Shown here one piece after another: positions 7,240-23,317 of a stretch of DNA of 44,377 nucleotides. Numbering within the stretch: the first letter of the stretch is position 1; each line of letters opens with the position of its first letter. Made by a program: the position numbers and the translations under genes. Source of the stretch: a virus; the IMG/VR virus record IMGVR_UViG_3300048134_000198; one strand, written 5' to 3'. The notes under the pieces were generated by a model. The model saw only the letters and a list, made by a program, of their open reading frames with translations. It was not told where the DNA came from and searched no databases.

Positions 7240-7290
7240 GTCCCGATGACCCGGTTTGGACAGCCCCCTCGGGGGCTGGAGGCGAGGGCC
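7240..7290 (+). ncRNA. K-turn-like element K1
   Basis: CCC-GAT-GA-C-CC...GG-C-GA-GGG enclosing the perfect hairpin CAGCCCC-CTCG-GGGGCTG. Confidence 0.5.
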
Positions 7291-7357
7291 TGTACCGCAC
7301 GCGAACTGAATCCTGTACGTCTTCCAGGGCGTCGAGCCAGGGACCGATCCATAACTG

Positions 7358-7439
7358 GGGTGGCAGCAAGGCCCGAGTGGACTACCCGCGGGATAACCGC
7401 GGTCCCACGCGTCGGGCGCGGTGCGACTCCGGCCACCCA
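7358..7439 (+). ncRNA. tRNA-like structured RNA
   Basis: GGGTGGC/GCCACCC acceptor-like stem plus A, T-loop-like TGCGACT on a short stem, long internal hairpin in place of D/anticodon arms, followed by CTCTTTT. Confidence 0.5.
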
Positions 7440-7462
7440 ACCCTCTTTTCCATACCACAACA

Positions 7463-7508
7463 GCCTCGCCCCCACTTGGTGGGCGTCGACGTCACGGTCG
7501 AGCGAGGC
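7463..7508 (+). ncRNA. three-way-junction structure
   Basis: GCCTCGC/GCGAGGC closing CCCAC-TTG-GTGGG and TCGAC-GTCACG-GTCGA. Confidence 0.35.
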
Positions 7509-7567
7509 CCTCCGATGACTCCGCACCGATTCACCAGCCAGCACGCCGCCTGGCTGATGCATGCATC

Positions 7568-7900
7568 ATGAGCACCGACCACGCAGACCGGCCGTGGTAC
7601 TGCCGGGACGACGTCGTCGACGAGTACCGCAGTACGCTGACCACTGGCGGTGAGAGGTTGCCGATGCTCAAAGCCCTGAAAATCCTGCGCGCCATCGTCG
7701 TCAACCTCGGCCTGCTCGCACTCACTGGGTACTCGATTCGCCGGGGCGGCGACCCAACCCTGCTTGGGTTCACTGCGCTGGCGGTGATCGGCGCGTACAA
7801 CGGCCTCGAGCTCGGCGACTACCTCGCACTCGTTCAGGCGTACAAGGAAGTCCAGCAGACCACCGCCGACTCCAACGACAGCAACGGCGACAACTCATGA
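7568..7900 (+). CDS. 2-TM membrane protein, holin-like
   Basis: Two hydrophobic segments, charged termini, 110 aa. Confidence 0.6.
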   Translation: MSTDHADRPWYCRDDVVDEYRSTLTTGGERLPMLKALKILRAIVVNLGLLALTGYSIRRGGDPTLLGFTALAVIGAYNGLELGDYLALVQAYKEVQQTTADSNDSNGDNS

Positions 7901-8505
7901 CGCCCGAACGCCTCCTCACCCGACTCCTCGCGCTCGCGATGGATCGCCCCGAACAAACCGCAGCCGCTGCGACCGCGCTCGCCACCGTCCTCGTGCACTA
8001 CCGGCAGACTGGACGGGTCCCGCTCGGGCGGCTGCCGTGGCGCATCATCAAGCAGAACGTTCGCGAGCTCGGCAACCAGTACTTCCGCCGCCCCCGCCCA
8101 CGGGGCGTCCCCGCACTCGTCGTCGACGCGAAGCCCGATGATCTCGAAGACACGCTTCGCAACGAGTTCTTCGAGAGCGTGGACCTCTACTCCTACGAGT
8201 ACGCGGATGAGGCGTGGAACCTCCGCCGCCCACAGGGAACTCGTTCGCATCCGGAGACCGGTGCGCCGGTGCCGATGGAACTCCACCCACGTGGGTTCCT
8301 GACGTCGGATGGGCGGACGCTGGTCTCGGCGCATGACGAAGCCAGTCGGTTCGAGGCGTACGGCCCCCACCTCAACGAAGTCCTCCTCTCCTGGAAGCGC
8401 GGCCGCGACGGAATGACTGAGGTACTCGACCAGCTGGACGTCGAGTACGAAGAGGTCGAGAGCGAACGCGCAGCGGACATCACCGTCGAACCACCAGCAA
8501 ACTGA
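7897..8505 (+). CDS. hypothetical protein, 202 aa
   Basis: ATGA-coupled to the holin-like gene; halophile-like composition. Confidence 0.75.
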   Translation: MTPERLLTRLLALAMDRPEQTAAAATALATVLVHYRQTGRVPLGRLPWRIIKQNVRELGNQYFRRPRPRGVPALVVDAKPDDLEDTLRNEFFESVDLYSYEYADEAWNLRRPQGTRSHPETGAPVPMELHPRGFLTSDGRTLVSAHDEASRFEAYGPHLNEVLLSWKRGRDGMTEVLDQLDVEYEEVESERAADITVEPPAN

Positions 8506-8553
8506 CACAGGCAACTCGTTCCTCCCCACCGGACAGCCGACGTCCACCCGCCC

Positions 8554-8570
8554 TACTTAAAGTATATATC
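8554..8570 (+). promoter_or_regulatory. archaeal TATA promoter of the packaging/head operon
   Basis: TACTTAAAGTATATATC, an AT island ~35-45 nt upstream of terS. Confidence 0.6.
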
Positions 8571-8602
8571 CCGCCAGAACGCTGCAGAACACTCCACCAC
8601 CC

Positions 8603-9325
8603 ATGAGCAACCGCGACCGCCGCGTCAACCTCGCGTTGAAGTGGCACTATCTCGACAACCTCTCCCCACGGGAGGTACGCGACCGCTTCGAAGCCGAGGG
8701 TATCGGCGACTTCGCACTCTCGACGATTAGGGGCTACCTCAACGAGGAGCCGAAGGAGGAGGTCCTTGAGATGATCGAGGCCGAGCACGCCGACGTCCGG
8801 CTGCAGGCCGCCGAACGCTTCGAACGCCTGTACCAGCAGGCACGGGAGGACCACGATGAGCTGGCGGTTGAGGATGAGCCGGTGCGTCGTGTGAAGCCGA
8901 AGATGACGCGCCTGCCGAAGAATCAGGACGCGTTCCAGATGCCGGCCTGGGAGGTCATCGAGCCCGGCGATAAGGACTGGCCCGAGCACGCCAACGAGCG
9001 CGACCTCTACATTCGATTCACGGACGAGCGCGTGTTCATCGAGCCGGGCGACAAGTACCCGGTGCGGAACGAGATCGACGACCAGCCGGTGTACACGACC
9101 GAGATGATCGGGCTCGAGCGCGACGTCCCGGAGCTCTCGCAGCGCCAGGCTGCTCGAGGAGAGATGAGCCAGCACCTGCGGCAGAAGGCCGACGTCATGG
9201 GCGTCTACAGCACGGACATCAACCTCGACGTCGACGGCGAGCTGGAGACGTCGGTGTCGCTCGACGAGGAGGCGGCCGCAGTCATCCGGGAAGCAACGAG
9301 CCCTACGGGTGAGGGCGATGAGTAG
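8603..9325 (+). CDS. terS: terminase small subunit (HTH)
   Basis: N-terminal HTH-like region, position directly before terL with overlap. Confidence 0.75.
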   Translation: MSNRDRRVNLALKWHYLDNLSPREVRDRFEAEGIGDFALSTIRGYLNEEPKEEVLEMIEAEHADVRLQAAERFERLYQQAREDHDELAVEDEPVRRVKPKMTRLPKNQDAFQMPAWEVIEPGDKDWPEHANERDLYIRFTDERVFIEPGDKYPVRNEIDDQPVYTTEMIGLERDVPELSQRQAARGEMSQHLRQKADVMGVYSTDINLDVDGELETSVSLDEEAAAVIREATSPTGEGDE

Positions 9326-10916
9326 TACTCAGGATAGCGCCGGCGATGGCGTCGAGGTGGATCTCTCCCGGTCGGAGATTCGTGCCGCGTACAATCCCTT
9401 CGAGCATGGGTGCTGGCTGGAGTTCGCGAACAAGCTCACCGAGGGCTACATGCAGGCCGAACCCGACCCGTGGAGCCCGCTCGGCGACCACCACGCGCAG
9501 TGGCTCCGCCACATCGCCGGCGAAGCAGACGTCTCTGGGGACCTCGCACTCCTCTGCCACCGGGACGGCCTCAAGACGACAATTGTCACGACGTACCTGA
9601 TCGCGTGCCTGGAGTACAAGCCGGGGTTCCGCGCGATCTGGTGCATGAACACCCAGGAGCAGGCCTACGAGAAGGCCGACCGCGAGCTCAACAAGTTCAT
9701 CGAGCGCAACCCGTGGCTGATCAACCTGAACAAGCCGCGGAAGACGGACTCGAAGAAGGTCAAGGAGTTCCACCACGACGCCTCCCTGACGACGGCGTGG
9801 CTGTTCGGGGCGGTCGAGGGCGCTCGCGCACACGTCCTCATCCACGACGACATCATCAAGGAGCGCGGTGACGGCGCGACGTCGGAGGTCGTCAACTGGG
9901 TGGACGGCGTCGCGCAGCCGATGGTGAAAGACGACGGCCGCACCGTGATGGTCGGCACCCGCAAGCGCCCGGACGACATCTGGTCGCACTACCGCGACTA
10001 CGAAGGCTACGCGCTCCGAGAGTTCCCGGCCATCCTCGACATCTGGGATCAGGAGTTCCGTGAGGACGACGACTGGCAGGACCGACGCCCCGACGAGGAC
10101 CTCTACGCGGACGTCCAGAATCCGTGGGGTTCGGGGACGCTGCAGGTGCTGTGGCCGGACGCGCGTGGCCCCGACTGGCTCGCAGACAAGCGCTCGAAGA
10201 TGGCGGACTACCTCTTCTGGCGCGAGTACACGCTCACCATCCGCGGCGCCAGCGGGAACCTCATCGAAGAGGCGGACGTCAACCAGCTCGTCGACGACGG
10301 CGGCTGCTCGATTCGCGGCCAGTCGCCGCCCCGGGAACTCACGCCCGGCCAAGGGGAGGCGACGATCGTCGCGCACGACCCAGCGCAGTCCGACACTGGC
10401 GACAACGCGGCGTTCGTCGCGTTCCGCGTTGGCTCGGATGGACGTCGTCGCCTCCTGGAGGCGAAGGCCGAGCAGGGGATGCAGCCCTCGCAGGTGAAGG
10501 CGACGCTGGCGGACCTCGATGACCGCTACGACCCGGCCGTCGTCGTCATCGAGAATAATGGAATGCAGCAGTACGTTGCGAACGACGCCGTCGAGTTCTC
10601 GGCGTCACTGCGTGCGAAGGTCACGGGCATCCCGACGACCGGCAAGAAACACAGCTGGGAGAACGGCATCCCGCGGCTGCGGCGGCTCGTCGAGAATGGC
10701 GGCATCCAGTTCTACCGAGGGCACTCGGGGACCGAGGAGTTCGTGCAGGCGGCGATGAGCCTCACGCTCCAGGACGGGAAGCTGCAGGGGCACACGCCGG
10801 ACCTCATCGCGGCGTGGTACATGGCCGAGCAGGGCATCCGCCACCTCGAAGGCATCGGCGCGCTCGACGAGGACAGCGATGACGACGACAGTGGAGGCGC
10901 GGTCACCCATCTATGA
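9318..10916 (+). CDS. terL: terminase large subunit
   Basis: Walker A-like HRDGLKTT, Walker B LIHDD, GT coupling motif, RNase H-like nuclease HDPA...D, IENN. Confidence 0.9.
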   Translation: MSSTQDSAGDGVEVDLSRSEIRAAYNPFEHGCWLEFANKLTEGYMQAEPDPWSPLGDHHAQWLRHIAGEADVSGDLALLCHRDGLKTTIVTTYLIACLEYKPGFRAIWCMNTQEQAYEKADRELNKFIERNPWLINLNKPRKTDSKKVKEFHHDASLTTAWLFGAVEGARAHVLIHDDIIKERGDGATSEVVNWVDGVAQPMVKDDGRTVMVGTRKRPDDIWSHYRDYEGYALREFPAILDIWDQEFREDDDWQDRRPDEDLYADVQNPWGSGTLQVLWPDARGPDWLADKRSKMADYLFWREYTLTIRGASGNLIEEADVNQLVDDGGCSIRGQSPPRELTPGQGEATIVAHDPAQSDTGDNAAFVAFRVGSDGRRRLLEAKAEQGMQPSQVKATLADLDDRYDPAVVVIENNGMQQYVANDAVEFSASLRAKVTGIPTTGKKHSWENGIPRLRRLVENGGIQFYRGHSGTEEFVQAAMSLTLQDGKLQGHTPDLIAAWYMAEQGIRHLEGIGALDEDSDDDDSGGAVTHL

Positions 10917-11023
10917 CTCAGGATACTCAGGACGACTCCCGCGAGAAGCACGGCATCAAGGGCGGCACCGAGACCGTCGACAAACTCCGAGACGCACTCG
11001 AGGAGGACGATAGCGATGAGTGA
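10913..11023 (+). CDS. 36-aa microprotein
   Basis: ATGA coupling to terL; acidic. Confidence 0.45.
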   Translation: MTQDTQDDSREKHGIKGGTETVDKLRDALEEDDSDE

Positions 11024-11198
11024 GGACGCCCCGAAGATCTGGATCGAGCACTACGACCTCAACGTCGGCGTCGTCGGCGGCGACAGCGACACCCTCGAAG
11101 ACGTCCAAGAGGTCTTCGACGAAGAGCTCAAGAAAGCCCTCGAGAACGATCCGAAGGTCGGTGAGGGGGACGTCGACGACACCCGGGGGGTGCAGTAA
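11016..11198 (+). CDS. 60-aa acidic protein
   Basis: Coupled between terL region and portal. Confidence 0.65.
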   Translation: MSEDAPKIWIEHYDLNVGVVGGDSDTLEDVQEVFDEELKKALENDPKVGEGDVDDTRGVQ

Positions 11199-13054
11199 TG
11201 AGCGCCGACGACGACGGGAACGTCTCCGTCTCCGTCTCGAAGCTCGGCGACGGCAGCGGCGCCATGTCGAAAGCCCGCGAGACCACCCAGCTCGACGAGC
11301 GCCACATCCCCACCGGCCGCGGCTGGGGCATCCGCCCCCCGTACCCGCCAGAGACCCTCGCTGCGTTCACCGAACTGAACGAAACGCACGCCGCGTCCAT
11401 CCGCAAGAAGGCACGCTGGGAAGCCGGCTACGGCTTCAACATCACCCCGCACATGTCGGTCGACCCCGAGGACGCTGACGATGGCGAACGCGATGACGTC
11501 GAGGAGTTCTGGTACGGTAGCCGGTCGAAATGGCAGACTGGTCCTGAGCATACGCCGGCGACCACGCCGACGGAAGTCCTCGAGCTCGCGCGGATGGACT
11601 ACCACATGATCGGCTGGTGCGCGCTCGAAATCCTCGTCGCCCCCGACGGCACACCCACCGGGCTGGCGCACGTCCCGGCGACGACCGTCCGCGTGCGGAA
11701 GACCGAGACAGAGACCGAGGACGGTGAGACAATCGTGACGTCGGGCCACGGCTACGTGCAGCGTCGCCACGGCCAGCGCCGGTTCTTCGGCGAGGCCGGC
11801 GACCGCTACGTCAACGAAGACAACTCCAACGACGAGCGCGTGTTCGTCGACAAGGAAACCGGAGACGTCGCCACTGGGAGCGCCGAACGCCTGGATAACG
11901 ACCCGGCGAACGAACTCATCTTCATCCCCAACCCGAGCCCGATCGCGACCTACTACGGGATTCCGGACTGGATCTCGGCGATGGAGACGATGTCGATGGA
12001 CCAGGCGGCGAAGCGCTACAACCGGGACAAGCTCGAGCACTTCGGCATCAGTCACTTCGCGGTCATCGTCAAGGGCGGCACCCTCACCGAGGAGTCCAAG
12101 GAGGAACTCCGGGAGATGCTTGAGGACCTCGAAGACAACCCCCACCGCGCGTCCGTGCTCGAAGTGGAGAAGCTCCAGGAGGACGCGAACGACCTCGGAC
12201 TCGAAGGTGAGGGCGGCAGTGATATCGAGGTGGAGTTGCGGCCGCTCGCCGGCGACAACGCCGGCCAGATGGACTACGAAACGCTTCGGAAGGAGGCCGA
12301 GCAGGACATCGCGAAAGTCCACGAGGTCCCCCCGATCCTCTACAATCGTCCCGGGCAGTCGAATCGGTCGAACTCGAAAGAACAGGTGCGTGAGTTCGCC
12401 GAGGAAGTCATCGCGCCCGAACAGGCGAAGTTCGAGGCGCGGCTCTACGAGATCCTCCACAAGACGGCGCTCGACGTCACCGACTGGACGATTGAGTTCA
12501 AGCTGAAGGGCGCCGATCAGCCCGACCGCGATGCGACGATCGCCCAGAAGCGCATCGGCGCGTCGAACGGCACGCTCACCGTCGATGAGGCGCGCGCCGA
12601 ACTCGACAAGGACCCGCTGCCTGACGAGCACGACGTCGACGGCGACACGCTACTCGCGAACCTCGACCAGTCTGCAGCCGACGTCGTCGGCGACGAAGAT
12701 CGGCCGGAGGACGCACCGCCGACCGAGAACATGGTCGGCACACGGAACAGTATCGATGTCGACCGGCAGGCCGCCAAGGACGAAGACAACGACGAGGTCC
12801 AGATGCAGGAGTTCGACTCCTCGAATATCCACTCGGCGCTCTACCAGAGCGTGACCGAGGACCTCTACGTCCGCTTCCACGGCCACGATGGTGGCACGGA
12901 CCGGATTTACGTCTATCTCGGCGTCCAAGAGGACGAGTGGGAGTCCTGGCTGGACGCCAGCTCCGCGGGCTCCTATCACTACGAGAACATCCGGATGTCG
13001 TACCCGTACGAGGAGCTGACGAACACGACTGGCTGGCCGCAGATCGGACAGTAA
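11198..13054 (+). CDS. portal protein with C-terminal KTSC domain
   Basis: Position after terL; portal-like HMIGWCALE, YYGIPDW, IAKVHEVPP, TVDEARAELD; C-terminal DSSNIHSALY...LYVRF...YVY...SAGSY matches the KTSC pattern. Confidence 0.88.
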   Translation: MSADDDGNVSVSVSKLGDGSGAMSKARETTQLDERHIPTGRGWGIRPPYPPETLAAFTELNETHAASIRKKARWEAGYGFNITPHMSVDPEDADDGERDDVEEFWYGSRSKWQTGPEHTPATTPTEVLELARMDYHMIGWCALEILVAPDGTPTGLAHVPATTVRVRKTETETEDGETIVTSGHGYVQRRHGQRRFFGEAGDRYVNEDNSNDERVFVDKETGDVATGSAERLDNDPANELIFIPNPSPIATYYGIPDWISAMETMSMDQAAKRYNRDKLEHFGISHFAVIVKGGTLTEESKEELREMLEDLEDNPHRASVLEVEKLQEDANDLGLEGEGGSDIEVELRPLAGDNAGQMDYETLRKEAEQDIAKVHEVPPILYNRPGQSNRSNSKEQVREFAEEVIAPEQAKFEARLYEILHKTALDVTDWTIEFKLKGADQPDRDATIAQKRIGASNGTLTVDEARAELDKDPLPDEHDVDGDTLLANLDQSAADVVGDEDRPEDAPPTENMVGTRNSIDVDRQAAKDEDNDEVQMQEFDSSNIHSALYQSVTEDLYVRFHGHDGGTDRIYVYLGVQEDEWESWLDASSAGSYHYENIRMSYPYEELTNTTGWPQIGQ

Positions 13055-13058
13055 CACC

Positions 13059-13102
13059 AGCCCTGATGACCGCGGGCGCGCCCGACGACCCGCGCGAGGA
13101 CT
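13059..13102 (+). ncRNA. K-turn-like element K2
   Basis: CC-TGAT-GA-C-CGCGGG...CCCGCG-C-GA-GG. Confidence 0.55.
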
Positions 13103-13123
13103 ACCGGGACGACGGTTCTTACG

Positions 13124-14848
13124 ATGACAGACTACGAGAGTCGCCAGTTCACCAAGCAGGTCGCAATCAAGGCGACCGACGACGCCGAGCAGATAGCCAC
13201 GGGGCTCGCGCTCACCGCCGGCGAAGTCGACCACCAGCTCGACTTCTTCCGCCCGGATGGGGTCGAAGCGATGTACAACCCCAGTCCGGACCACGGCGTG
13301 ATGCACGGCCGCTTCCCGGACGACGACGCTGAGCTCGTCCGGAACGAGGTCCTCGACGAGCCCGAGGAGATCGACGGCGCCGCGTTCGAGGCTGGCGACT
13401 GGGTCGTCCAGCGCCAGTACCACAACGACGACCTCTGGGAGTTCGTCGAGCGCGGTGTCCTCAACGGCTACAGCATCGGCGGCCAGGTCACCGAGGCTAT
13501 CGAGTACGAATCGGTTGAGGACCTGCCGGACGACGTCGACATCCCCGACGTGGTCGACCCCGAGGCGGTCGACGACAAGTACCACCCACCGACAGAGGTG
13601 ACGAACGGGTTCGTCAGCGAGGTATCTGACGTCGACATCCCGGCTGTCGTCTCCGCTCAGTTCGCGACCACGAAGGCGGACAAGTCGATTGTCGATGACG
13701 TCGCCGGCGAAGACGAGTTCGTCGACGTCATGACCAGCCGTGGTCACGACGAGGCGGACGTCCGCGACCTCTGGACCTACCTCGAGTCGATTGACGCTGG
13801 CGACGACAAACATGCAATGAGCAAGTCACAGACAGACCCCGACGCCGACGCGCCCGACCTCGACGAGGAGGACGTCGGCTTCCTGAAGCGCCTCCGACAA
13901 GCGGTCACCAAGAGCGACGGCGACGCGGAGCCCGATGACGACGACACCCCCACGCCGGGGCAGTCCGAGGTCTCCGACGTCACGCTCGCGAAAGCCCTCG
14001 CTGCATCGAAGGAGGGCCGGCCGCTGAACGCCGACAACCGGGAGGCGCTGATGGCGGCCCACGACGCGGTCGAAGCCGCGCTGGCGTCGGACATGAACCT
14101 CGAGACGAATCGGTTTACAGACGACCCCGAGTCGGACTTCGACCTCACCGCGTACGCCGACGAGTTCGGCAGCGACGACGGCGACGAGGATGGCGAGAAG
14201 GCCGCGCCGGTTGAGAAGCTGACCGAGGAGCAAGGCGACCTCGTCGTCAACGCGCTCCAACGCTTCATCGACAACCAAGGCGAGGCGCCATTCGCGGATT
14301 TCTCCTCGTGGATCTGGCAGACGGACGTCCTCGACGACGACACCGCATTCGCGGCCGACGAGGCTGTCTGGCAGTACCGCGAGTACGTTCGCGAGCAGCG
14401 CGACGAGACGCCGGTCACCGAGGACTTCGCAGACTGGGTGGCCGAGGAGTCCGACACCGACACCGACCTCACCATGAGCAAGAACGACAACAGCGGCGAC
14501 GACGGTGGCGATCCGTTCGCTGACGCCCCGGAGTGGGCGAAGGCACTCAAGGAACAGCAGGAACAGAACAGCAGCCGCATCGACGACGCCCTCGACAAAT
14601 CGGGCGACACCGACGACGATGGTGACGATGACGGCGACAAGGCGTTCGAGGATGCCCCGGAGTGGGCGAAGGCGCTGAAAGAAGAGCAGGAGAAGAACGC
14701 TGAGCAGATCGAGACGATCTCGAAGCAGACTGGCGCGAGCCAGCAGGTCGACGGCATGGAAAAGACTGGCGAGGACGGCGACCTGTCCGAGGATTCGACG
14801 GAGTTCAAGAAGGCGCTCGGCGGCGGCGTCGGCGGAGGTGCCAACTGA
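13124..14848 (+). CDS. XkdF-like prohead protease fused to acidic scaffold
   Basis: VDHQLDF, GVMH, GDWVV, GVLNGYSIGG; acidic C-terminus with duplicated motif. Confidence 0.85.
   Translation: MTDYESRQFTKQVAIKATDDAEQIATGLALTAGEVDHQLDFFRPDGVEAMYNPSPDHGVMHGRFPDDDAELVRNEVLDEPEEIDGAAFEAGDWVVQRQYHNDDLWEFVERGVLNGYSIGGQVTEAIEYESVEDLPDDVDIPDVVDPEAVDDKYHPPTEVTNGFVSEVSDVDIPAVVSAQFATTKADKSIVDDVAGEDEFVDVMTSRGHDEADVRDLWTYLESIDAGDDKHAMSKSQTDPDADAPDLDEEDVGFLKRLRQAVTKSDGDAEPDDDDTPTPGQSEVSDVTLAKALAASKEGRPLNADNREALMAAHDAVEAALASDMNLETNRFTDDPESDFDLTAYADEFGSDDGDEDGEKAAPVEKLTEEQGDLVVNALQRFIDNQGEAPFADFSSWIWQTDVLDDDTAFAADEAVWQYREYVREQRDETPVTEDFADWVAEESDTDTDLTMSKNDNSGDDGGDPFADAPEWAKALKEQQEQNSSRIDDALDKSGDTDDDGDDDGDKAFEDAPEWAKALKEEQEKNAEQIETISKQTGASQQVDGMEKTGEDGDLSEDSTEFKKALGGGVGGGAN
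14514..14698 (+). repeat. duplicated scaffold motif F-x-DAPEWAKALKE-x-QE-x-N
   Basis: Copies at ~14514-14569 and ~14643-14698. Confidence 0.8.
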
Positions 14849-14849
14849 C

Positions 14850-15890
14850 ATGACTGACATCCAAGACGCACGCGACGCGAACACGCAGGCCGTACAGAAG
14901 CAGACCATCGACACCTCGCAGCTGAACGGCGCACAGCTCCCGCGAGATCTCTTCGAGCGGTTCATCGAACGCCAGCAGCGCGAAGCCACGCTGCTGTCGG
15001 ACGTCCGCGTCGAGACGCTGCCGCGCCTCGAGATGGGCGTCCCGAAGCTCGGCGTCCCCGAGCTCTCCGGGAGCGTCCGCAGCGAGGGCGGCGAGGACGC
15101 CACCGGGACCGACAACGCCGACGCAGAAACGGGGTCGGTGGAGTTCAACGCGACCGACCAGTCGTACTACATCCAATACGACCTGAAGCGGGACGCGGTG
15201 AAGAACGTCATCACCAGCGAGGACGCTGTCGCGGACGTCATTCTCTCGCACTTCGAGCGTGCGTGGGGCAACGACGTCCAGAACATCGGCATCAACGCTG
15301 GCCGGAGTGGGAGCGGGCTGCCGGCGCAGTTCAACGACACGTTCGACGGCTGGATCGCCATCGCCGAAGGCAACGACACCGCCTCCGACCGGATCGGCAC
15401 GGGCGAGGAGGCGGACGCCTCGACGATGCCGACCTACAACCACTCGGACAGCAACGGGAATGCGCAGCCGGTGAACACTGCGCTGTTCAACGCGATGATT
15501 CAGACGGTGCCCGAGCGGTACCGCGACCCGGACACGCTGCAGTTCCACACCTCGAAGAGCCAGGTGCAGGACTACCTCTACCGGCTCACCGAGCGCGAGG
15601 ACGCGCTGGGCGCGGCGGCCGTGATGGGTGACAGCGACATCACGCCGTTCGAGTACGACGTCATCGGGCGGTCGTACTGGCCGGACGATGTCATGATGCT
15701 GGTCGACCCGCAGAACCTCGTGTACGGGCTCTTCGAGGAGGTCGAGATCACGCAGCTCGTGCAGACTGACCAGACGATGGAGCGCCGCCTCCACTCCCGG
15801 AACCTCCTGGAGGGACAGTTCGACTTCCAGATTGAGGAGCTGCAGGCGGGCGCGCTCGGGACGAACATCGCGGCGCCGAACGCGGTCTAA
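14850..15890 (+). CDS. major capsid protein (HK97 fold)
   Basis: Size ~346 aa, position after protease/scaffold, G-x-L-P, FDGW and DPQNL motifs. Confidence 0.88.
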   Translation: MTDIQDARDANTQAVQKQTIDTSQLNGAQLPRDLFERFIERQQREATLLSDVRVETLPRLEMGVPKLGVPELSGSVRSEGGEDATGTDNADAETGSVEFNATDQSYYIQYDLKRDAVKNVITSEDAVADVILSHFERAWGNDVQNIGINAGRSGSGLPAQFNDTFDGWIAIAEGNDTASDRIGTGEEADASTMPTYNHSDSNGNAQPVNTALFNAMIQTVPERYRDPDTLQFHTSKSQVQDYLYRLTEREDALGAAAVMGDSDITPFEYDVIGRSYWPDDVMMLVDPQNLVYGLFEEVEITQLVQTDQTMERRLHSRNLLEGQFDFQIEELQAGALGTNIAAPNAV

Positions 15891-16104: not shown

Positions 16105-16115
16105 GGTGACCTAAG

Positions 16116-16481: not shown

Positions 16482-16487
16482 CTCGCT

Positions 16488-17234: not shown

Positions 17235-17395
17235 CGTCACTCGTCGACGTCCTGGCCACGGCTATCGGCGTCATCACTGGGACGTGGCTGTACCATGCGT
17301 GGCGGGACCGCAGCGCCGACGGCGATCCTCGGTGGCTGTACCGCTCTCGTGTTTCGGAGACGTCGGACGAGGATCCGCGCACGGAGGAACAGTGA
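17231..17395 (+). CDS. 54-aa single-TM microprotein
   Basis: ATGA overlap; hydrophobic N-terminus LVDVLATAIGVITGTWLY. Confidence 0.55.
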   Translation: MTSLVDVLATAIGVITGTWLYHAWRDRSADGDPRWLYRSRVSETSDEDPRTEEQ

Positions 17396-17402
17396 CCCCA
17401 CG

Positions 17403-17945
17403 ATGCCAGATGAGAATCCTGCGGCGACGGTCACCCTCGACTTCACCCTCGACCTGCAGACCGACCCCTTGGGCGCCGTCCTGGAGGTCTCGGTGCCCGA
17501 TGCGTCCAGTCAGGGAGCGCGGGAGGCGTTCCTCGACTCCGCCGAAGCGGCGCTCGTCGGCCAACGAGGGAACCTCGTCGCCCAAGCAGTCTCGGAGGCA
17601 CACGGCCAACTCGCATCCTACGCCTCGGCACAAGGCGGGTACGCGTACGATCCCGTCGAGGAGTCCTTCCAGGGCGTCACTGTTGAGCGCGGCCAACGCG
17701 GCCTCACCATCGAGTGGTCGTGGGACTCCGAAGTGGCAGAAATATGGGAGTTCGGCTGTCCGCCCTATACTATAAATGGGTCGCCGTTAGCGTTTGAGTT
17801 TGATTCTGCGGAGTATCCGGGGCTTGCGGAAGCGTTCCCGAAGGGAACTGCGTTTCTTCAGGAAGTCGAGCATCCGGGGTTTCCGGAAGCTCGCTGGGTT
17901 AGAGATAGCCTCCACTGGTTGCGGCGAGAGGTGGCTCAGACATGA
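17403..17945 (+). CDS. HK97 gp10-like neck/tail completion protein
   Basis: WEFG...HPG-x-P-x-R-W-x-RDS pattern; position. Confidence 0.7.
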   Translation: MPDENPAATVTLDFTLDLQTDPLGAVLEVSVPDASSQGAREAFLDSAEAALVGQRGNLVAQAVSEAHGQLASYASAQGGYAYDPVEESFQGVTVERGQRGLTIEWSWDSEVAEIWEFGCPPYTINGSPLAFEFDSAEYPGLAEAFPKGTAFLQEVEHPGFPEARWVRDSLHWLRREVAQT

Positions 17946-17983
17946 TAAAAGAATCGACGATGGGGAAGTTCCCTGGTAGGGGG

Positions 17984-18316
17984 TTAGTCGTCGTTAGTTG
18001 TCCACTGGATGGGGTTGCCGTTTTCGGTGGTCCACTGGACGTCGAAGGTGACGTGGTTGAAGAGGAGTTCGTCCATGTCGGGGTCGTAGCCGAGTGCTTG
18101 CTGGTCCTGGTATTTCAGCATGGCGCGCTCAAGAAGTGGCTGCGGCAGTTCGACGGTGGCTTCCCGCGCCTCCATGCGGGGGAGTTTGACGTCGAGGTGC
18201 AGGCGAATCGCACGCTCGATGTAGTCCGAGACGGTTTCGTCGTCGCGGGCTTCGAGTTCGATCCAGTCGGCGAGCGGTTCGGTGACCTCGATCTCGATAA
18301 TCCGCGTCCCTGTCAT
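17984..18316 (-). CDS. A1: 110-aa ribbon-helix-helix-like protein
   Basis: IEIEV-helix-ETVSDYIERAIRLHL pattern; paralog of B1. Confidence 0.75.
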   Translation of the reverse strand: MTGTRIIEIEVTEPLADWIELEARDDETVSDYIERAIRLHLDVKLPRMEAREATVELPQPLLERAMLKYQDQQALGYDPDMDELLFNHVTFDVQWTTENGNPIQWTTNDD

Positions 18317-18429
18317 AGGCTGTCGAGGAAGGCTTGGCAGTCGTGGTCGTCGATGCGTTCGGGCAGCCCGACAGCACCACACACCATGCACTCCTGTAAT
18401 TCGGGGCCAACGCAAGTGTCGTCGGTCAT
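18313..18429 (-). CDS. A2: 38-aa Zn-finger microprotein
   Basis: MTDDTCVGPELQECMVCGAVGLPERIDDHDCQAFLDSL; 36/38 identical to B2. Confidence 0.75.
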   Translation of the reverse strand: MTDDTCVGPELQECMVCGAVGLPERIDDHDCQAFLDSL

Positions 18430-18431
18430 GG

Positions 18432-18611
18432 TTAGGTGTGCTGGCAGCCGGGGGCGTGGTCGAAGTTCTGGACGCCGTCGGCGAGGACTTCCCGATTACA
18501 GTCGGGGCAGCGGTAGTAGCGTCGGCCGCCTTGGGCGAGTGGTTCGATGTACGGTCCGTCTAGGTGGGTCGTGGGGTCAGTCTTACATGACCTGGAAGCG
18601 TTCGTACTCAT
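18432..18611 (-). CDS. A3: 59-aa CxxC...HxxxC microprotein
   Basis: MSTNASRSCKTDPTT...YRCPDC...HAPGC; shares its N-terminus with B3. Confidence 0.65.
   Translation of the reverse strand: MSTNASRSCKTDPTTHLDGPYIEPLAQGGRRYYRCPDCNREVLADGVQNFDHAPGCQHT
18567..18605. repeat. 39-bp direct repeat copy 1 (38/39 identical to 21632-21670), contains GGTCA-N8-TGACC
   Basis: Direct comparison. Confidence 0.85.
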
Positions 18612-18631
18612 GGGTTCTTGGCTACTCGTTG

Positions 18632-18687
18632 GGAACCCGGGTCCGGTGTTCTAGCACCGGGCCGCTTTCTGCGGCACCCCGCGTTCC
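18632..18687 (-). promoter_or_regulatory. conserved three-way-junction 5' leader, copy A
   Basis: Outer stem, GCCGC-AGAAA-GCGGC, CCGGTG-CTAGAA-CACCGG; begins ~26 nt downstream of TTTTATA. Confidence 0.65.
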
Positions 18688-18690
18688 TAC

Positions 18691-18749
18691 TTGGTTGTAT
18701 GTGCCCAGCCAGTATAAAACTTGGCCTATACAACCAACCTTGGTTGTAT
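18691..18749. promoter_or_regulatory. divergent promoter with operator: TTGGTTGTAT...ATACAACCAA-CC-TTGGTTGTAT
   Basis: Perfect 10-bp palindrome arms plus a third half-site flanking the TATA. Confidence 0.65.
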
Positions 18750-18788
18750 CGGCCCATTTATGGGCCTACGTCACCAACACCGAATTGT

Positions 18789-19013
18789 ATGAGCACCACA
18801 AACCAGACGTCCATGGGAACTGGACGCGGCATCCTCACCGACTACGAACGCGACTGCCTCGCCGGCGAACACGAAAAACAGCGCGAATACGAAGCCCGCT
18901 CCCGAATCCGCGCGCGCCTCGACGGCCCGCTCGCAGAGGACATCCAGCACCTCAAAGAACACGACCCCGACCTGCTCGAAGAACTCCGCGACGTCGTCTG
19001 CCAGGAGGACTAA
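18789..19013 (+). CDS. A0: 74-aa small putative regulator
   Basis: GRGILTDYER...HDPDLLEELRDVVC; paralog of B0. Confidence 0.8.
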   Translation: MSTTNQTSMGTGRGILTDYERDCLAGEHEKQREYEARSRIRARLDGPLAEDIQHLKEHDPDLLEELRDVVCQED

Positions 19014-19015
19014 CC

Positions 19016-20224
19016 ATGCCCAAAACCCGCGACGACGTCGAACCCTGGCAGGACAAGGAAACTCTCGAATGGGCGTACCACGAGAAAGACAAATCCCGCA
19101 GAGAAGTTGGCGACTTGTTGGGCTGCTCTGGCGGGGCTATACGATACCGGATGGACAAGTACGGTATCGAAGCTGACCCAGGCCCCAACCGGGAAGGGCC
19201 GTGGCGAGACAAAGAGACTCTCAAACGCGAGTACATCGAGAAGGAACGCCCGATGAGCGAACTCGCCGACGCCTGGGACACCGGCATCGCAACTATCTCT
19301 CGGTGGTGCGATGAGCACGACCTCGAAACTCGCGACCGTTCCCAGTCTGGCGAGGATCACTGGAACTGGAAAGGGGGGCGGTCATACCATGGGGCGGCCG
19401 GTGAACCCCGCGACTGTCCGGTCTGCGGCGAAGAGTTCAAGCCGACCGATTCCCGGCAGATAACCTGCTCACGGTCTTGTGCGGCTGAACGCCTCAAAGA
19501 CCGCGTGACGAAAACCTGTGAGACGTGCGGCGAGGACTTCGAAGTCCTCAACTGCCGGGAGGAGACCGCACGGTACTGTTCCCGTGACTGTAAGCCCATC
19601 CCGGAGGACTTCCCGGGGCGGGAGATCGACGGGCTGGTCACACTCGAATGCGAGTGGTGCGGCGACAGCTTCGAGGTCTATCCATCGAAGACTCATCGGC
19701 GGTTCTGCGGGCAGGAGTGCATGGAAGAGTGGTCCAGTTCACGGACGGGCCCCGATCATCCAAACTGGGAAGAAAAGAGTGTGGTAGACTGCCATACATG
19801 CGGCGAGGAAATTGAACTCGCTCCCTGGCAGATAGGCCGGGCAGAACGTAGATTCTGCTCACTTGAGTGCCGGAAAGAATGGCTGTCGGAACACTACAGC
19901 GACCGCTGGACTGGGTCCGACCATCCGAATTGGAAAGGTGGTGTCAAGCCGTACGGCGAAGGCTGGAATGACACCAAGCGAAAGAAGGTCCGCGTTCGTG
20001 ACCAGGCCCGGTGCCAGGATTGTGGGATGACCGAAGCCGACCACGTCGAAGAGCACGGGGAAAAACCACATGTGCATCACGTGGTGCCGGCTCGGGAGTT
20101 CGACGAACCCGAGGAGCGGAACGCGATGGCGAACCTGATTACGCTCTGCCGGAGCTGCCACCTCGGGAAGTGGGAGTCGATGCCCGGACTCCGGCCGGAT
20201 ACCCGCGAACAGACTGCCGACTAA
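19016..20224 (+). CDS. HNH endonuclease A (HTH repeats, CxxC...CSxxC repeats, NWKGG motifs, C-terminal HNH)
   Basis: CQDCG...HVHHVVP...NAMANLITLCRSCH. Confidence 0.9.
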   Translation: MPKTRDDVEPWQDKETLEWAYHEKDKSRREVGDLLGCSGGAIRYRMDKYGIEADPGPNREGPWRDKETLKREYIEKERPMSELADAWDTGIATISRWCDEHDLETRDRSQSGEDHWNWKGGRSYHGAAGEPRDCPVCGEEFKPTDSRQITCSRSCAAERLKDRVTKTCETCGEDFEVLNCREETARYCSRDCKPIPEDFPGREIDGLVTLECEWCGDSFEVYPSKTHRRFCGQECMEEWSSSRTGPDHPNWEEKSVVDCHTCGEEIELAPWQIGRAERRFCSLECRKEWLSEHYSDRWTGSDHPNWKGGVKPYGEGWNDTKRKKVRVRDQARCQDCGMTEADHVEEHGEKPHVHHVVPAREFDEPEERNAMANLITLCRSCHLGKWESMPGLRPDTREQTAD

Positions 20225-20232
20225 CACGCCCG

Positions 20233-20258
20233 CCGATGACCCCCGGAGGGGGCGAGGA
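20233..20258 (+). ncRNA. K-turn-like element K3
   Basis: CC-GAT-GA-C-CCC-GGAGG-GGG-C-GA-GG; canonical stem only 2 bp. Confidence 0.45.
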
Positions 20259-20314
20259 CCTGCAGCGAGATTTCTCACGACGATGAACACCACCCTACAG
20301 AGAGCTACCGCCAC

Positions 20315-20839
20315 ATGACCGCAGAAACCGCCTGGGTCCTCGAGCAGTTCGCGAGCGTCGCAACAGACGTCGCCAACGAGTACACGCTCGAGAGTGGCGA
20401 CCCCGTCGAGTTGGAGCGCGTGAACCGGGACGAGTCCCGACTCCTCGAGCAGGACGTCCAATCCATCAGGGGCGACCTGGAGCAGGCGGCGTTCGTCGGC
20501 GCTACCCACGTCGACACTGTGGAGGAGCCGATGGGCAGCCAGTATGATCTCCAGCGGGAGGTCGTCGTCGGCGTCCGCGTCACGGGGCTTACCGCCCAGG
20601 GCTCGTACGGCCACATCGACCCCAGCGGCGAGGACGGCATCCCGTTCACTGGCGACGGCGGCCTCGTCCAGCGCTGCAAGGACGCACTCCTCTCGGAGCG
20701 CAAGTGGCCGGACGCCGGCCCCGCGGACGTCTCCTACCCGCACTTGGAGTTGCAGAATGAGGTGAACACCAGCCAGCAGTGGGCGGATTTCTACCGCTGG
20801 GACGCGGACGTAGTATTTAAAGGACACCGGGATTTGTAA
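20315..20839 (+). CDS. tail terminator/minor tail protein, 174 aa
   Basis: Acidic; position between gp10-like gene and tail tube once the cassettes are removed. Confidence 0.65.
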   Translation: MTAETAWVLEQFASVATDVANEYTLESGDPVELERVNRDESRLLEQDVQSIRGDLEQAAFVGATHVDTVEEPMGSQYDLQREVVVGVRVTGLTAQGSYGHIDPSGEDGIPFTGDGGLVQRCKDALLSERKWPDAGPADVSYPHLELQNEVNTSQQWADFYRWDADVVFKGHRDL

Positions 20840-20863
20840 CGATGTCTACGCCAACGACGCCAC

Positions 20864-20888
20864 AAGAAAAACCCCGGGCTACGGGGTT
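20864..20888 (-). terminator. terminator of cassette B minus-strand operon
   Basis: AACCCCG-TAGCC-CGGGGTT followed by a T-run on the minus strand. Confidence 0.6.
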
Positions 20889-21267
20889 AGTCGTCGTTAG
20901 TTGCCCATTCGATGGGGTTGCCGTGTTCGGTGATCCAGTTGACGTCGAAGTGGACGTAGTTGAAGAGGAAGTCGTCGGGGTTGACGTCGATGCCGCGGGC
21001 TTGGCAGTCTCGGTATTTGTAGGTGGCGCGTTCGAGGATTTCGTGGGGGATGGCGACGTCGACTTCGCCGGCGGTCATGGTGCCGTGGAGGTCTTCCTCA
21101 AGGCGGAGTTGGACTGTCTCGGCGATCCACTCTGGGACGCTGTAGTGGTCGCGTTTTTCGAGGAGGAGCCACTTGAGCATGGGCTGGGTGAGTTCGAGTT
21201 CGATGGTTGCCCAGTCGTCGCCGCGTGGTTCGATGTCGTCGAGGTTGTCGAAGTCGAGTTCGGTCAT
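20887..21267 (-). CDS. B1: 126-aa RHH-like protein
   Basis: Paralog of A1; both end in W-x-TNDD. Confidence 0.75.
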   Translation of the reverse strand: MTELDFDNLDDIEPRGDDWATIELELTQPMLKWLLLEKRDHYSVPEWIAETVQLRLEEDLHGTMTAGEVDVAIPHEILERATYKYRDCQARGIDVNPDDFLFNYVHFDVNWITEHGNPIEWATNDD

Positions 21268-21380
21268 AGGCTGTCGAGGAATCGCTGGCAGTCGTGGTCG
21301 TCGATGCGTTCGGGGAGGCCGACCGCGCCACACACGGGGCATTCCTGTAGTTCGGGGCCGACGCAAGTGTCGTCGGTCAT
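21264..21380 (-). CDS. B2: 38-aa CPxCG Zn-finger microprotein
   Basis: MTDDTCVGPELQECPVCGAVGLPERIDDHDCQRFLDSL. Confidence 0.78.
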   Translation of the reverse strand: MTDDTCVGPELQECPVCGAVGLPERIDDHDCQRFLDSL

Positions 21381-21676
21381 GGGTCGAGGGTGGCGGCGAT
21401 GGCGTTGCCGGGGGAGTCGAACATGTACTGGGTCGTCCAGCCGCGCTCCGTTCGGACGTAGTCCATCCATTCGTGGACGCTGCGGCCGTCGAGGGCTTCG
21501 ACGTGCTCGCGGTTGCCGTCCGCGTCGACGACGTGGATGGTTTCGTCGGTCGTGCGGTAGACGTGCGAAGCGTGCTCGGTGTCTACGCCGAGGCGGATGT
21601 AGGTTGGTCGCGGGTCGGTACGCCGGTTCGCGGTCGTGGGGTCAGTCTTACATGACCCGGAAGCGTTCGTTGACAT
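21377..21676 (-). CDS. B3: 99-aa hypothetical protein
   Basis: MSTNASGSCKTDPTT... then a body unrelated to A3. Confidence 0.7.
   Translation of the reverse strand: MSTNASGSCKTDPTTANRRTDPRPTYIRLGVDTEHASHVYRTTDETIHVVDADGNREHVEALDGRSVHEWMDYVRTERGWTTQYMFDSPGNAIAATLDP
21632..21670. repeat. 39-bp direct repeat copy 2 (GGGTCA-GTCTTACA-TGACCC)
   Basis: Direct comparison with 18567-18605. Confidence 0.85.
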
Positions 21677-21691
21677 GCTTCGGTGGTTGCC

Positions 21692-21748
21692 GAAGCGCGG
21701 GCGGGCGTCCAAGCGCCCGTCCACTTTCCTGTGGCAGTCCCGCGCTTC
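21692..21748 (-). promoter_or_regulatory. conserved three-way-junction 5' leader, copy B
   Basis: GAAGCGCGGG/CCCGCGCTTC closing CCAC-AGGAAA-GTGG and CGGGCG-CTTGGA-CGCCCG; ~26 nt downstream of TTAAGT. Confidence 0.65.
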
Positions 21749-21809
21749 TTACTGTATACAATAAGCCCCAGCCACTTAACCTTACCGAATACAGAAAGGC
21801 TTACTGTAT
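21748..21809. promoter_or_regulatory. divergent promoter with operator CTTACTGTAT...ATACAGAAAG-G-CTTACTGTAT
   Basis: Same layout as the cassette A operator, different half-site. Confidence 0.55.
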
Positions 21810-21853
21810 TGGGAAAGGTACAAGGTGGTGGGGAGAGTATTACCGAATGAAGT

Positions 21854-22084
21854 ATGAAAGCACCCACCGAACACGAGGCCATGTCCCAAGGACGCGGCCT
21901 CCTCACCGAACGCGAACGCGAGGCAATCGCCGGCGAGACCTCCGACTCGTACCGCTACAAGACTCGGTCGTTCTTCCGCGACCGGCTGGAGGCTCTTGAG
22001 GACGACGTCGACGTCCTCGAAGAACACGACCCCGAACTGCTCGAAGAACTCCGCGACGTCGTCTGCCGAGAGGAGGAGGACTAA
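21854..22084 (+). CDS. B0: 76-aa small putative regulator
   Basis: GRGLLTERER...HDPELLEELRDVVC. Confidence 0.8.
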   Translation: MKAPTEHEAMSQGRGLLTEREREAIAGETSDSYRYKTRSFFRDRLEALEDDVDVLEEHDPELLEELRDVVCREEED

Positions 22085-22089
22085 CACCT

Positions 22090-23271
22090 ATGCCCAAAAC
22101 CCGGCGCGACGTCAAACCCTGGCAAGACGAGGAAACCCTTCGGTGGGCATACCACGAAAAACACCTCTCGCAAGATGAGGCCGGACATCTCCTTGGCTGT
22201 TCAGGCAGAACAGTCGGAAATTGGATGTTTAGAAATGATATTGAGGCGCGCTTTGATGGCGGGCATGGGCAAAAGCGAGACATCTCCAAGGAGAAAGTTG
22301 AAGAATTATTTGTTGACCAAGAGATGTCTCCGTCCGAGGTTGCCGAAGCGTTGGATCGTTCGGAGAGTAACATTCAGGAATATATTCACGCATGGGGGTT
22401 GAAGGCGGAAGTGGACGGACCTTACGATTGTCCACAATGCCAGTTCTCATTTAACTCAGAAAAGGCGAAAAACACCCACTGTGCGAATGTACATGGGGAA
22501 TATACGGCACAACAAGCAGTTCCATGTGACAACTGCGGAGAGCAAACAACTAAATATAAATCTGAGATGGGCCGGTATGACTACCACTATTGTTCCCCTG
22601 AATGCCGCGAGAATCACCAGTCGACTCTCCCTCCTGAAGAACAACCCGCATGGAACGGTGGCAAAGTCACCGTCGAATGCGCCTACTGTGGTACTGAAAA
22701 GAAAGTCACTCCCTCCCGCGTTGAACAAACAGATAACTTCTTCTGTGATGGGGAATGCTACGGGAATTACAAATCGAGTGAAAATAGCCACCCAGAACCC
22801 AATACTTACACAGGCCCAAACCACCCGCAGTGGAACAGTATTGAGATTGAGTGTGATTGGTGTGGCGGAACTGACTACAAGCCCCCCGCAAGAATTGAAA
22901 GGAGTGAACAGGACTTCTGTTCGCCCGAATGCCACAATAAGTGGATGGCTGAAAACCAGGTTGGCCCAGCCCATCATCAGTGGGAGGGGGGAAGATTGGA
23001 CTACGGGAAGGGTTGGACGCCCAAAAAACGCCGCAAAGTCCGCTCCCATGCCGACTTCCAATGCGAGGACTGTGGAATGCCCCAAGAAGACCACTTAGAC
23101 TGGTGTAACCGGAAGCTCCACGTTCATCATGTTATCCCGGCTAGACAGTTCGACGATCCAGAAAAGCGAAACGCGGTAAGCAACCTTGTAGCCCTTTGCA
23201 TCCCTTGCCACAGGAAATGGGAGTCGATGCCAGGCCTCCGCCCGGATACTCGCGAACAGCCCGCTGACTAA
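22090..23271 (+). CDS. HNH endonuclease B
   Basis: Same architecture as HNH A; CEDCG...HVHHVIP...NAVSNLVALCIPCH; visibly more AT-rich interior. Confidence 0.9.
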   Translation: MPKTRRDVKPWQDEETLRWAYHEKHLSQDEAGHLLGCSGRTVGNWMFRNDIEARFDGGHGQKRDISKEKVEELFVDQEMSPSEVAEALDRSESNIQEYIHAWGLKAEVDGPYDCPQCQFSFNSEKAKNTHCANVHGEYTAQQAVPCDNCGEQTTKYKSEMGRYDYHYCSPECRENHQSTLPPEEQPAWNGGKVTVECAYCGTEKKVTPSRVEQTDNFFCDGECYGNYKSSENSHPEPNTYTGPNHPQWNSIEIECDWCGGTDYKPPARIERSEQDFCSPECHNKWMAENQVGPAHHQWEGGRLDYGKGWTPKKRRKVRSHADFQCEDCGMPQEDHLDWCNRKLHVHHVIPARQFDDPEKRNAVSNLVALCIPCHRKWESMPGLRPDTREQPAD

Positions 23272-23274
23272 CAC

Positions 23275-23317
23275 GCGGTCCTGATGACGCCCTGAAGCCC
23301 GGAGGGTCGAGGACTGC
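23275..23317 (+). ncRNA. K-turn-like element K4
   Basis: GCGGTCC-TGAT-GA-C-GCCCT...AGGGT-C-GA-GGACTGC (7-bp canonical stem). Confidence 0.6.

Follow-up and report, generated by a model that had tools for sequence, protein, structure and literature searches.

The archaeal protein L7Ae is known to bind kink-turns in rRNA, RNase P RNA, guide RNAs, and the leader of its own mRNA. The leader kink-turn is the site of autoregulation, at which L7Ae represses translation of the l7ae message (Daume et al. 2017, PMC5539422; PMC6298567), and Daume et al. also remarked on an upstream bulged strand in their Haloferax alignment (PMC5539422). Here we analyze a stretch of 44,377 nucleotides (nt), IMG/VR record IMGVR_UViG_3300048134_000198 (hereafter the window), in which a first-pass annotation had pointed to four kink-turn-like hairpins, K1 to K4, in the late region. 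Judged by sequence, the window is a haloarchaeal provirus related to phiH and phiCh1, both ∼71% identical to its head-gene region (blastn), with Halorubrum viruses as more distant matches. Comparison with relatives makes K2 a member of a conserved, previously unannotated element whose core differs from that of the host l7ae leader at a single position, and we put the probability that the viral elements are kink-turns bound by L7Ae at roughly 0.6. Labels beginning with G or L are our handles for the compared sequences.

Four hairpins behind stop codons and the conserved protease leader

All four sites lie on the coding strand, 10-11 nt past a TAA that is followed by C(A/C)C. They read as first described, with the GATGAC and CGAGG boxes at 7245 and 7283 in K1, 13065 and 13095 in K2, 20235 and 20253 in K3, and 23283 and 23308 in K4, and the CCG(G)CACGCGA said to be common to K1 and K4 is found downstream of both. 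Their parts, including the C (canonical) and NC (noncanonical) helices, are as follows.

13052..13126, + strand: K2, the protease/scaffold leader element, with TAA at 13052-54 and ATG at 13124
13062-64 and 13098-13100, + strand: 5′ and 3′ strands of the K2 C helix; bulge GAU at 13065-67
13068-69 and 13096-97, + strand: the two GA steps of K2; 3b C at 13070, 3n C at 13095
13071-76 with 13089-94, + strand: K2 NC stem, CGCGGG with CCCGCG
13103-08, + strand: ACCGGG box of K2
20222..20259, + strand: K3, with TAA at 20222-24 and C helix CC (20233-34) with GG (20256-57)
20235-37, + strand: GAU of K3; GA at 20238-39 and 20254-55, 3b C at 20240, 3n C at 20253
20241-44 with 20249-52, + strand: K3 NC stem, CCCC with GGGG
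23269..23317, + strand: K4, with TAA at 23269-71 and C helix GCGGTCC (23275-81) with GGACTGC (23311-17)
23286-87 and 23309-10, + strand: GA steps of K4; 3b C at 23288, 3n C at 23308, NC hairpin 23289-23307
7231..7290, + strand: K1, a degenerate member, with TAA at 7231-33, CCC at 7242-44, GAUGAC at 7245-50, and CGAGGG at 7283-88
7251-82, + strand: two-tier hairpin of K1, inner stem CAGCCCCC/GGGGGCTG

Two copies had been given a four-nucleotide bulge; K2 and K4, and likewise the L003 copy, can be read so (the K4 C helix is then 7 bp, with UGAU at 23282-85), and a three-nucleotide GAU fits them too.

The bare words are frequent on the + strand of the window (GATGAC 32 times, CGAGG 52 times) because in this acidic coding sequence they encode Asp-Asp and Glu-Asp, and they become informative only when joined to a stem. 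As a strict descriptor we took Y-GATGA-Y, a terminal stem of 4 bp or more abutting both boxes, and then Y-GAG; it matches the window four times on the + strand and not once on the − strand. Dinucleotide shuffles of the window give a mean of 0.18 matches on both strands together, with none of the 300 shuffles reaching three, and 111 kb of haloarchaeal host chromosomal DNA gives no match. The four matches are K2, K3, K4, and a weak one in coding sequence at 14627; K1 is missed because only 2 bp adjoin its GA pairs. The occurrence of the four sites is above chance, which confirms and extends the original observation.

Ahead of the prohead protease gene, the K2 motif recurs in phiH, in phiCh1 (∼5749-5805 of its record), and in six contigs from IMG/VR, and no element of this type is annotated in the phiH or phiCh1 record. 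When the protease domain was used to search 401 Halobacteria genomes, 27 of them yielded a total of 30 loci. Covariance model R1 was built from five orthologues and R2 from 20 elements; R2 scores K2 at 46 bits (E 8e-8) and recovers the element at 23 of the 30 protease loci, equal to 20 of the 27 protease-bearing genomes. Both models are dominated by protease-leader features and miss K1, K4, and the host l7ae leaders. A scan of genome contigs for the motif returned one locus only, and in an IMG/VR pattern scan the hairpin was present in 5 of 120 among the matches listed. Upstream, where a gene is present, it is usually a portal-KTSC fusion (a Mu F-like gene in phiCh1, hp20 in phiH); in G001, G310, and G235 the element instead follows an AT-rich, promoter-like stretch that holds no long open reading frame (ORF). 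A second copy in phiH lies ahead of hp20, and contig L103 from IMG/VR has two kink-turn hairpins (11833-11893 and 12230-12290) 400 nt apart, with a T-arm-like piece, GGGTTCGAGTCCCGG, between them. More distant proviruses place a small gene of ∼45 codons between the element and the protease gene. This ORF (M..ERGEKRGVL.TGRA.., with an acidic tail) is conserved directly after the element in L017, L018, L020, L021, L024-L026, L028, L030-L032, and L035-L040, and has no counterpart in the window. As far as these sequence comparisons reach, the copy in the protease leader holds its position between distant proviruses, and nothing there suggests cassette turnover.

The other copies are less well matched by the models, and this bears on the idea that the likeness of K1, K3, and K4 to K2 is accidental or inherited from coding sequence and that these three copies lack a function of their own. 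K3 passes the strict descriptor and reaches only 22 bits with R2 (E 0.03); K4 passes the descriptor and scores below noise; K1 does not rise above noise. In G402 (L055), the closest contig, the K1 orthologue retains GAUGAC and a 5-bp C helix and has its 3′ strand altered to GGGAAGGGAC, so that the canonical strand is lost. These points, and the frequency of the two words, would fit such an origin. Against it stand the ∼0.18 matches expected per window, the location of all four sites in the few intergenic gaps, on the coding strand and at a fixed distance from TAA, and the recurrence of K4-type copies at the same gene junction in two other genomes; we find it hardly credible. The four copies are nevertheless of different kinds, with K2 an old leader that is conserved widely, K3 and K4 cassette-borne, and K1 degenerate.

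A kink-turn core in common with the host l7ae leader

Base pairing was counted on a MAFFT alignment (A7) over a 3-bp C helix and the four outer pairs of the NC stem. In this alignment 80.6% of cells are paired, as against 67.3% in shuffles, and the covariation score is 0.397, as against 0.194, a value that none of 500 shuffles reaches. Six of the seven pairs show changes on both sides, and sliding the partner by 1-3 columns lowers pairing to 47% or less. A model-fitted alignment of 24 distinct sequences (A9) gives a similar result, with 81.7% against 67.0% paired and a score of 0.386 against 0.134. A covariance model and a search of relatives had been proposed at the outset as a check; the outcome is that the element is conserved and that both helices covary above shuffles that ignore relatedness. 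In the model-fitted alignment the closing pair of the C helix, -1b:-1n, is C-G in 24 of 24 sequences; position -2 is paired in 22 of 24, and position -3 in 18 of 24, by five pair types (G-C, A-U, C-G, G·U, and U-A). An anchor-based test of 28 elements draws the same picture of the C helix and finds no pairing beyond -3. G·U pairs are frequent in the stems, and the fold therefore belongs to the sense strand.

The unpaired letters are those of a kink-turn. A three-nucleotide bulge, GAU, is invariant in 28 of 28 distinct elements and follows a short C helix closed by C:G at -1b:-1n. GA is invariant on both strands in A7, as a tandem G·A/A·G arrangement requires, and 3b·3n is a non-Watson-Crick C·C in most members. 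The C:C beside the GA pairs had been called invariant in the four copies; among relatives it is the usual pair, the exceptions being phiCh1 with C·U and L024 and L028 with U·U. An NC helix of 4-9 bp with compensatory changes comes next. At the level of sequence, then, the viral elements carry the defining features of a standard kink-turn, and the kink-turn-like fold first suggested is borne out in the relatives by covariation in both helices and by the invariant bulge, GA, and C:G letters, with K1 as a degenerate member. A C at 3b and a C:G pair at -1b:-1n favor kink-turn folding in metal ions, and all kink-turns tested fold upon L7Ae (Huang, Ashraf and Lilley 2019, PMC6298567). The C·C at 3b·3n and C:G at -1 of the viral elements would predict protein-free folding.

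For the host side we took the l7ae gene from 34 Halobacteria genomes, and GAUGA is present in the l7ae leader of 31 of them. A TTTTAT-type promoter is followed by a leader of the form ...GGGG-U-Y-GAU-GA-U-[stem-loop]-(G)C-GA-G-CCC...GGAGG...AUG. In 17 short-form leaders the hairpin is 95.4% paired and scores 0.497, as against 0.213 in shuffles, none of 500 of which reaches the observed value. The host C helix, 11 pairs with bulges, joins the 5′ end of the leader to the Shine-Dalgarno (SD) sequence GGAGG. When the viral core, Y-GAU-GA-C...C-GA-G, is set beside the host core, Y-GAU-GA-U...C-GA-G, only 3b differs (PMC6298567, PMC5539422). It is chiefly on account of this match that we would expect L7Ae to bind the viral RNA, and it makes host L7Ae recruitment, as the first-pass annotation had proposed, a reasonable suggestion. 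Of the effects proposed there for it, on late-gene stoichiometry, RNA stability, processing, or antitermination, any may apply. The viral KTSC domain, offered there as another candidate partner, fares worse: it is syntenic with the element in part of the family only, and in phiCh1 and phiH the element follows genes that lack KTSC. We also observed that the host l7ae leaders (L066-L099) span ∼90-150 nt and that in some genera extra hairpins are inserted in the NC arm.

Several points weigh against L7Ae-bound kink-turns. RNAfold energies of the four sites are no better than those of shuffles (z -1.2 to +0.6), single-sequence folding energies being uninformative here, and the shuffle controls for covariation ignore the relatedness of the sequences. 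Most members have a C helix of only 3 bp, K3 one of 2 bp, and a second register of G·A pairing is possible, GAUGA having two GA steps. The loss of the canonical 3′ strand in the K1 orthologue counts here as well, as does the fact that we infer binding by host L7Ae from the shared core. Finally, the next start codon is ∼25 nt away in protease leaders, ∼60 nt in K3, ∼80 nt in K4, and ∼135 nt in K1, and simple occlusion of the ribosome-binding site therefore cannot be the common mechanism; the viral C helix also lacks an SD sequence, with only the phiH hp20 copy having an SD-like GGAGGU as its 3′ strand.

The same conservation could reflect a structured RNA leader with some other tertiary core, such as a pseudoknot between the hairpin loop and ACCGGG, which would bind a viral protein (autoregulation by scaffold or capsid) or a small ligand. 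An ACCGGG(C)A box complementary to the hairpin loop is conserved 3-5 nt past the 3′ strand, lineage-specific changes of loop and box fit each other (CCCGA with UCGGG in L020, CGCCGGGG with CCCCGGCG in L013), four to five elements individually pair loop and box better than shuffles do, and the letters of the GAU bulge are invariant beyond what a kink-turn requires. Overall, however, the loop-box pairing is weak (mean z -1.1, with cognate and noncognate pairings ∼1 kcal/mol apart), K3, K4, and the G001 and G204 copies keep the core without the box, the core equals that of the host L7Ae operator, where the bulge is also GAU, and no riboswitch or other Rfam family matches. We therefore regard the pseudoknot as weak at the sequence level and a different core as unlikely. 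We likewise rejected a switch helix in which the 3′ strand (CGAGGNC) would pair with the pyrimidine-rich box near the start codon (mean z +0.29, none significant).

Spacing, inserted cassettes, and minihelices

Across the family the elements are intercistronic in late genes, and their conserved position is ahead of scaffold/protease and capsid genes. The spacer from the upstream stop codon to GAUGA is 9-14 nt, mostly 10-12 nt, in 20 of the 20 cases with a real upstream ORF. Given the size of the ribosome footprint, a ribosome sitting on the stop codon would reach roughly to the bulged strand; the constant spacing could also come from genome compaction. The upstream stops are TAA or TAG in 18 cases and TGA in 2, compared with ∼50% TGA in the background, so UAA/UAG as part of the motif is suggestive, and no more than that, since many of the gene ends upstream are homologous to one another. 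Most members also have a pyrimidine-rich box (UUCUC or UUUUC, with 2-4 U) 10-25 nt past the hairpin.

The constant distance from the upstream stop and this downstream box are what one might expect if the element were a 3′-end signal, a terminator or 3′-untranslated-region stabilizer of the upstream gene or cassette that shields the late genes from cassette or early transcription, with the kink-turn likeness secondary; the copies that border HNH, HicA, and recombinase inserts on their 3′ side fit this too. Yet the hairpin has no U-tract directly behind it, a terminator scan picks up none of the sites, the protease leader lies inside an operon whose downstream genes need high expression, and in G001, G310, and G235 the element follows the promoter-like stretch without a long ORF. 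This makes such a signal quite improbable. An intrinsic terminator in particular was rejected, the sites being missing from the scan and the pyrimidine box lying 10-25 nt off with 2-4 U. Two translational readings and a transcriptional one were likewise set aside: a small ORF from the AUG in GAUGA would have lengths of 3, 16, 88, and 90 codons, and the stems covary where the codons do not; under stop-codon readthrough the frame closes within 3-15 codons in K2, K3, K4, and phiCh1; and the defining features of a sigma-70 promoter were not found.

The genes and inserts around the elements, assigned with Pfam and PHROGs, are these.

9309-10916: large terminase
11198-13054: portal fused to a KTSC domain
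13124-14848: XkdF-type prohead protease/scaffold
14838-15890: major capsid protein
17942..20224, + strand: HNH cassette A, one 760-aa open frame with an HNH domain (Pfam) at residues 691-743
22090..23271, + strand: HNH endonuclease gene of cassette B, 393 aa, Pfam HNH and helix-turn-helix (HTH)
23390-24337: "minor tail protein" PHROG gene, downstream of K4

Past the major capsid protein the order is head-tail genes, two HNH-containing cassettes, and then the minor tail protein gene; a tRNA-Gln gene lies at the left end of the window. Three of the elements had been said to precede structural genes. This is right for K2 (XkdF protease/scaffold) and K4 (minor tail protein); the genes downstream of K1 and K3 have no known function by Pfam or PHROGs.

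The 3′ end of cassette A abuts K3, and K4 lies at the 3′ edge of cassette B, whose HNH gene stops 11 nt upstream of it. The last 150 nt of both HNH genes, the following TAACACGC, and K3/K4 themselves, including a common CCCGGAGGG in the hairpin, align at ∼80%; by this alignment K3 and K4 are therefore paralogues that were duplicated together with the two cassettes. No element is found before the 174-aa gene in five relatives without a cassette there; in these the gene abuts its neighbor, with GGAGGTG inside the upstream gene end. An element does precede the minor tail protein gene in the window, in G001 (L009:16140), and in G204 (L041:13878), and the inserts ahead of it are different in each case: HNH cassettes in the window, DUF7387 and HicA in G001, and a beta-helix protein with a small tyrosine recombinase in G204. 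Three relatives with adjacent genes at the K4 position lack the element, so that K4-type copies are confined to places where a foreign insert breaks into the tail genes. No relatives of the HNH protein were found in IMG/VR.

These boundaries raise the question of a site that acts as DNA, either a site of recombination or insertion, as folded single strand or as duplex, that moves along with cassettes as integron attC sites do, or else an operator to which a DNA-binding protein attaches. The elements do sit at the boundaries of unrelated inserted cassettes, K3 and K4 were duplicated with theirs, and small tyrosine recombinase genes lie nearby in G204. The orientation, however, is always that of the transcribed strand, and a G·U pair would be an A·C mismatch on the other; the conserved unpaired letters are exactly the kink-turn set; and the protease-leader copy keeps its place across distant proviruses. 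We consider a DNA-level site very unlikely.

Several side observations concern this region. The open frames over 17942-23271 have a third-position GC content below that of neighboring genes, with minus-strand genes likely inside, and the 760-aa frame of cassette A is probably not one gene. Following K3 (20236-20317) are two short ORFs of 16 and 10 codons joined by ATGA overlaps; the first opens with the AUG within GAUGA, the second closes on the 174-aa gene's start, and the chain may be chance or a coupling relay. A conserved short leader at 23350-23389 (ATG..CACAC..GGTGG or GGAGGT, then ATG) precedes the minor tail protein gene in all relatives (L056, L057, L059, L060), with or without a kink-turn, and may represent a tiny upstream ORF with an SD sequence.

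The first-pass annotation did not list a candidate fifth copy, which lies inside the protease/scaffold gene.

13931..13970, + strand: candidate fifth copy, in the linker between two domains

This copy reads CCC-GAUGA-C, a stem GAC/GTC around CCCC..GGGG, and then C-GA-GG. Weak R1/R2 matches fall at the same place in L003, L005-L007, L012, phiH (L001, 6532-6593), and phiCh1 (L002, 6749-6810), and the descriptor matches there in proteases of 40-47% identity (L017, L040, L036); the motif is also listed at this place in L041. It may be an embedded RNA element, for example for separate expression of the scaffold, or a byproduct of a conserved DD...SE peptide.

At two loci the protease-leader position holds something else. 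L022 (∼1330-1400) and L029 (∼1320-1390) have no kink-turn hairpin between the portal-KTSC gene and the small gene that precedes the protease; they have a tRNA-like minihelix instead, whose 6-bp acceptor-like stem covaries (UCCUCG/CGAGGA versus UCCCCG/CGGGGA) and is joined by a short linker to a T arm with the loop UUCGACU. The CCGG(G)CAC box of the kink-turn leaders follows the minihelix as well. ARAGORN called no tRNA at either minihelix. Since tRNA-like structures are classic RNA processing marks, the exchange of minihelix and kink-turn fits, by indirect analogy, a role in punctuation or as a processing mark. As a separate observation, the window has a tRNA-like element at 7357-7445, ∼75 nt past K1, which ARAGORN also does not call and which is well conserved in the closest contig (L055); its parts are a GGGUGGC/GCCACCC stem, a T-arm-like GCGG-UGCGACU-CCG, A-ACC, and an CUCUUUUCC tract.

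A possible punctuation mark in late messages and its known counterparts

Taking the elements as L7Ae-bound kink-turns, we propose that sense-strand kink-turn hairpins in the gaps of the late polycistronic mRNA would be bound by abundant host L7Ae and that each bound kink-turn would serve as a punctuation mark. The mark would separate downstream high-copy structural cistrons from upstream cistrons that are low-copy or foreign, perhaps by fixing or protecting an RNA end, perhaps by controlling independent translation of the next cistron; our certainty as to which is low. Viruses of this group probably use L7Ae to mark or control the messages of their structural genes, and a specific effect of the bound element on late mRNA has a much lower probability than L7Ae binding. 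The full proposal, in which L7Ae-operator mimics, exchangeable with tRNA-like minihelices, punctuate the late mRNA of haloarchaeal tailed viruses while L7Ae, sitting one ribosome footprint past the upstream stop, defines RNA ends or uncouples translation, is tentative and may well be wrong.

If it is true, the high-copy genes for scaffold, capsid, and tail tube would not depend for their expression on upstream genes that are foreign or encode the low-copy portal, the output of virion proteins would be tied to the pool of free L7Ae and hence to host ribosome assembly, and mobile cassettes would bring their own copy, so that an insertion leaves the downstream genes unsilenced. Post-transcriptional control of archaeal virus late operons is largely unexplored. 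The element is short, has invariant anchors, and is present in the cultivable phiCh1 and phiH, which makes direct tests possible; among the questions it opens to experiment are how an archaeal virus sets its portal-to-capsid ratio and how cassettes avoid polar effects when they insert into operons. For Rfam, the element would be a new RNA family. The view that this is not a described viral system is upheld by the lack of an Rfam family, of any annotation in the two virus records, and of any paper found in the literature that describes the element or a kink-turn as a cis element of an archaeal virus. Rfam gave no matches on the window at gathering thresholds and only noise in E-value mode on four relatives.

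Among known RNAs, the bulged strand resembles the C box of box C/D small RNAs (sRNAs; C box RUGAUGA, D box CUGA), reading YUGAUGA in K2 and K4, and L7Ae would be the expected ligand in both. The viral elements differ in having no CUGA D box, no C′/D′ pair, and no guide segments, and their G·A register is shifted by three nucleotides. We rejected a box C/D sRNA on these grounds, the 3′ strand being CGAG rather than CUGA, with no second box pair and no Rfam sRNA match. A hammerhead ribozyme was rejected too: the 3′ strand is GAG(G/A) and not GAAA, a Y·Y mismatch closes the stem, and Rfam gives no match.

Kink-turns also position a hairpin loop for a pseudoknot, as in P2 of the SAM-I riboswitch and stem I of the T-box. 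The viral kink-turn hairpin is likewise closely followed by a strand complementary to its loop; it differs in that its pseudoknot is weakly supported and that it has no ligand-binding core. In placement, the nearest counterparts are the intercistronic processing hairpins of phage late mRNAs, such as the RNase III sites of T7, and the tRNA-like punctuation of polycistronic RNAs. There, as here, small structured elements stand between the cistrons of long late transcripts. The viral motif and its presumed protein partner are different, and the viral elements are known from sequence alone.

The closest system is the autoregulatory kink-turn of l7ae, with which the viral elements share the GAU-bulge core, 3b being C in the virus and U in the host. 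The published l7ae sites are predicted to need L7Ae for folding, whereas the viral copies are predicted to fold protein-free. The host C helix pairs the 5′ end with GGAGG, and the viral C helix is 3 bp long and contains no SD sequence. The host site lies in the l7ae leader; the viral copies precede protease/scaffold and tail genes instead of l7ae, and lie in late structural operons and at cassette edges, several per genome.

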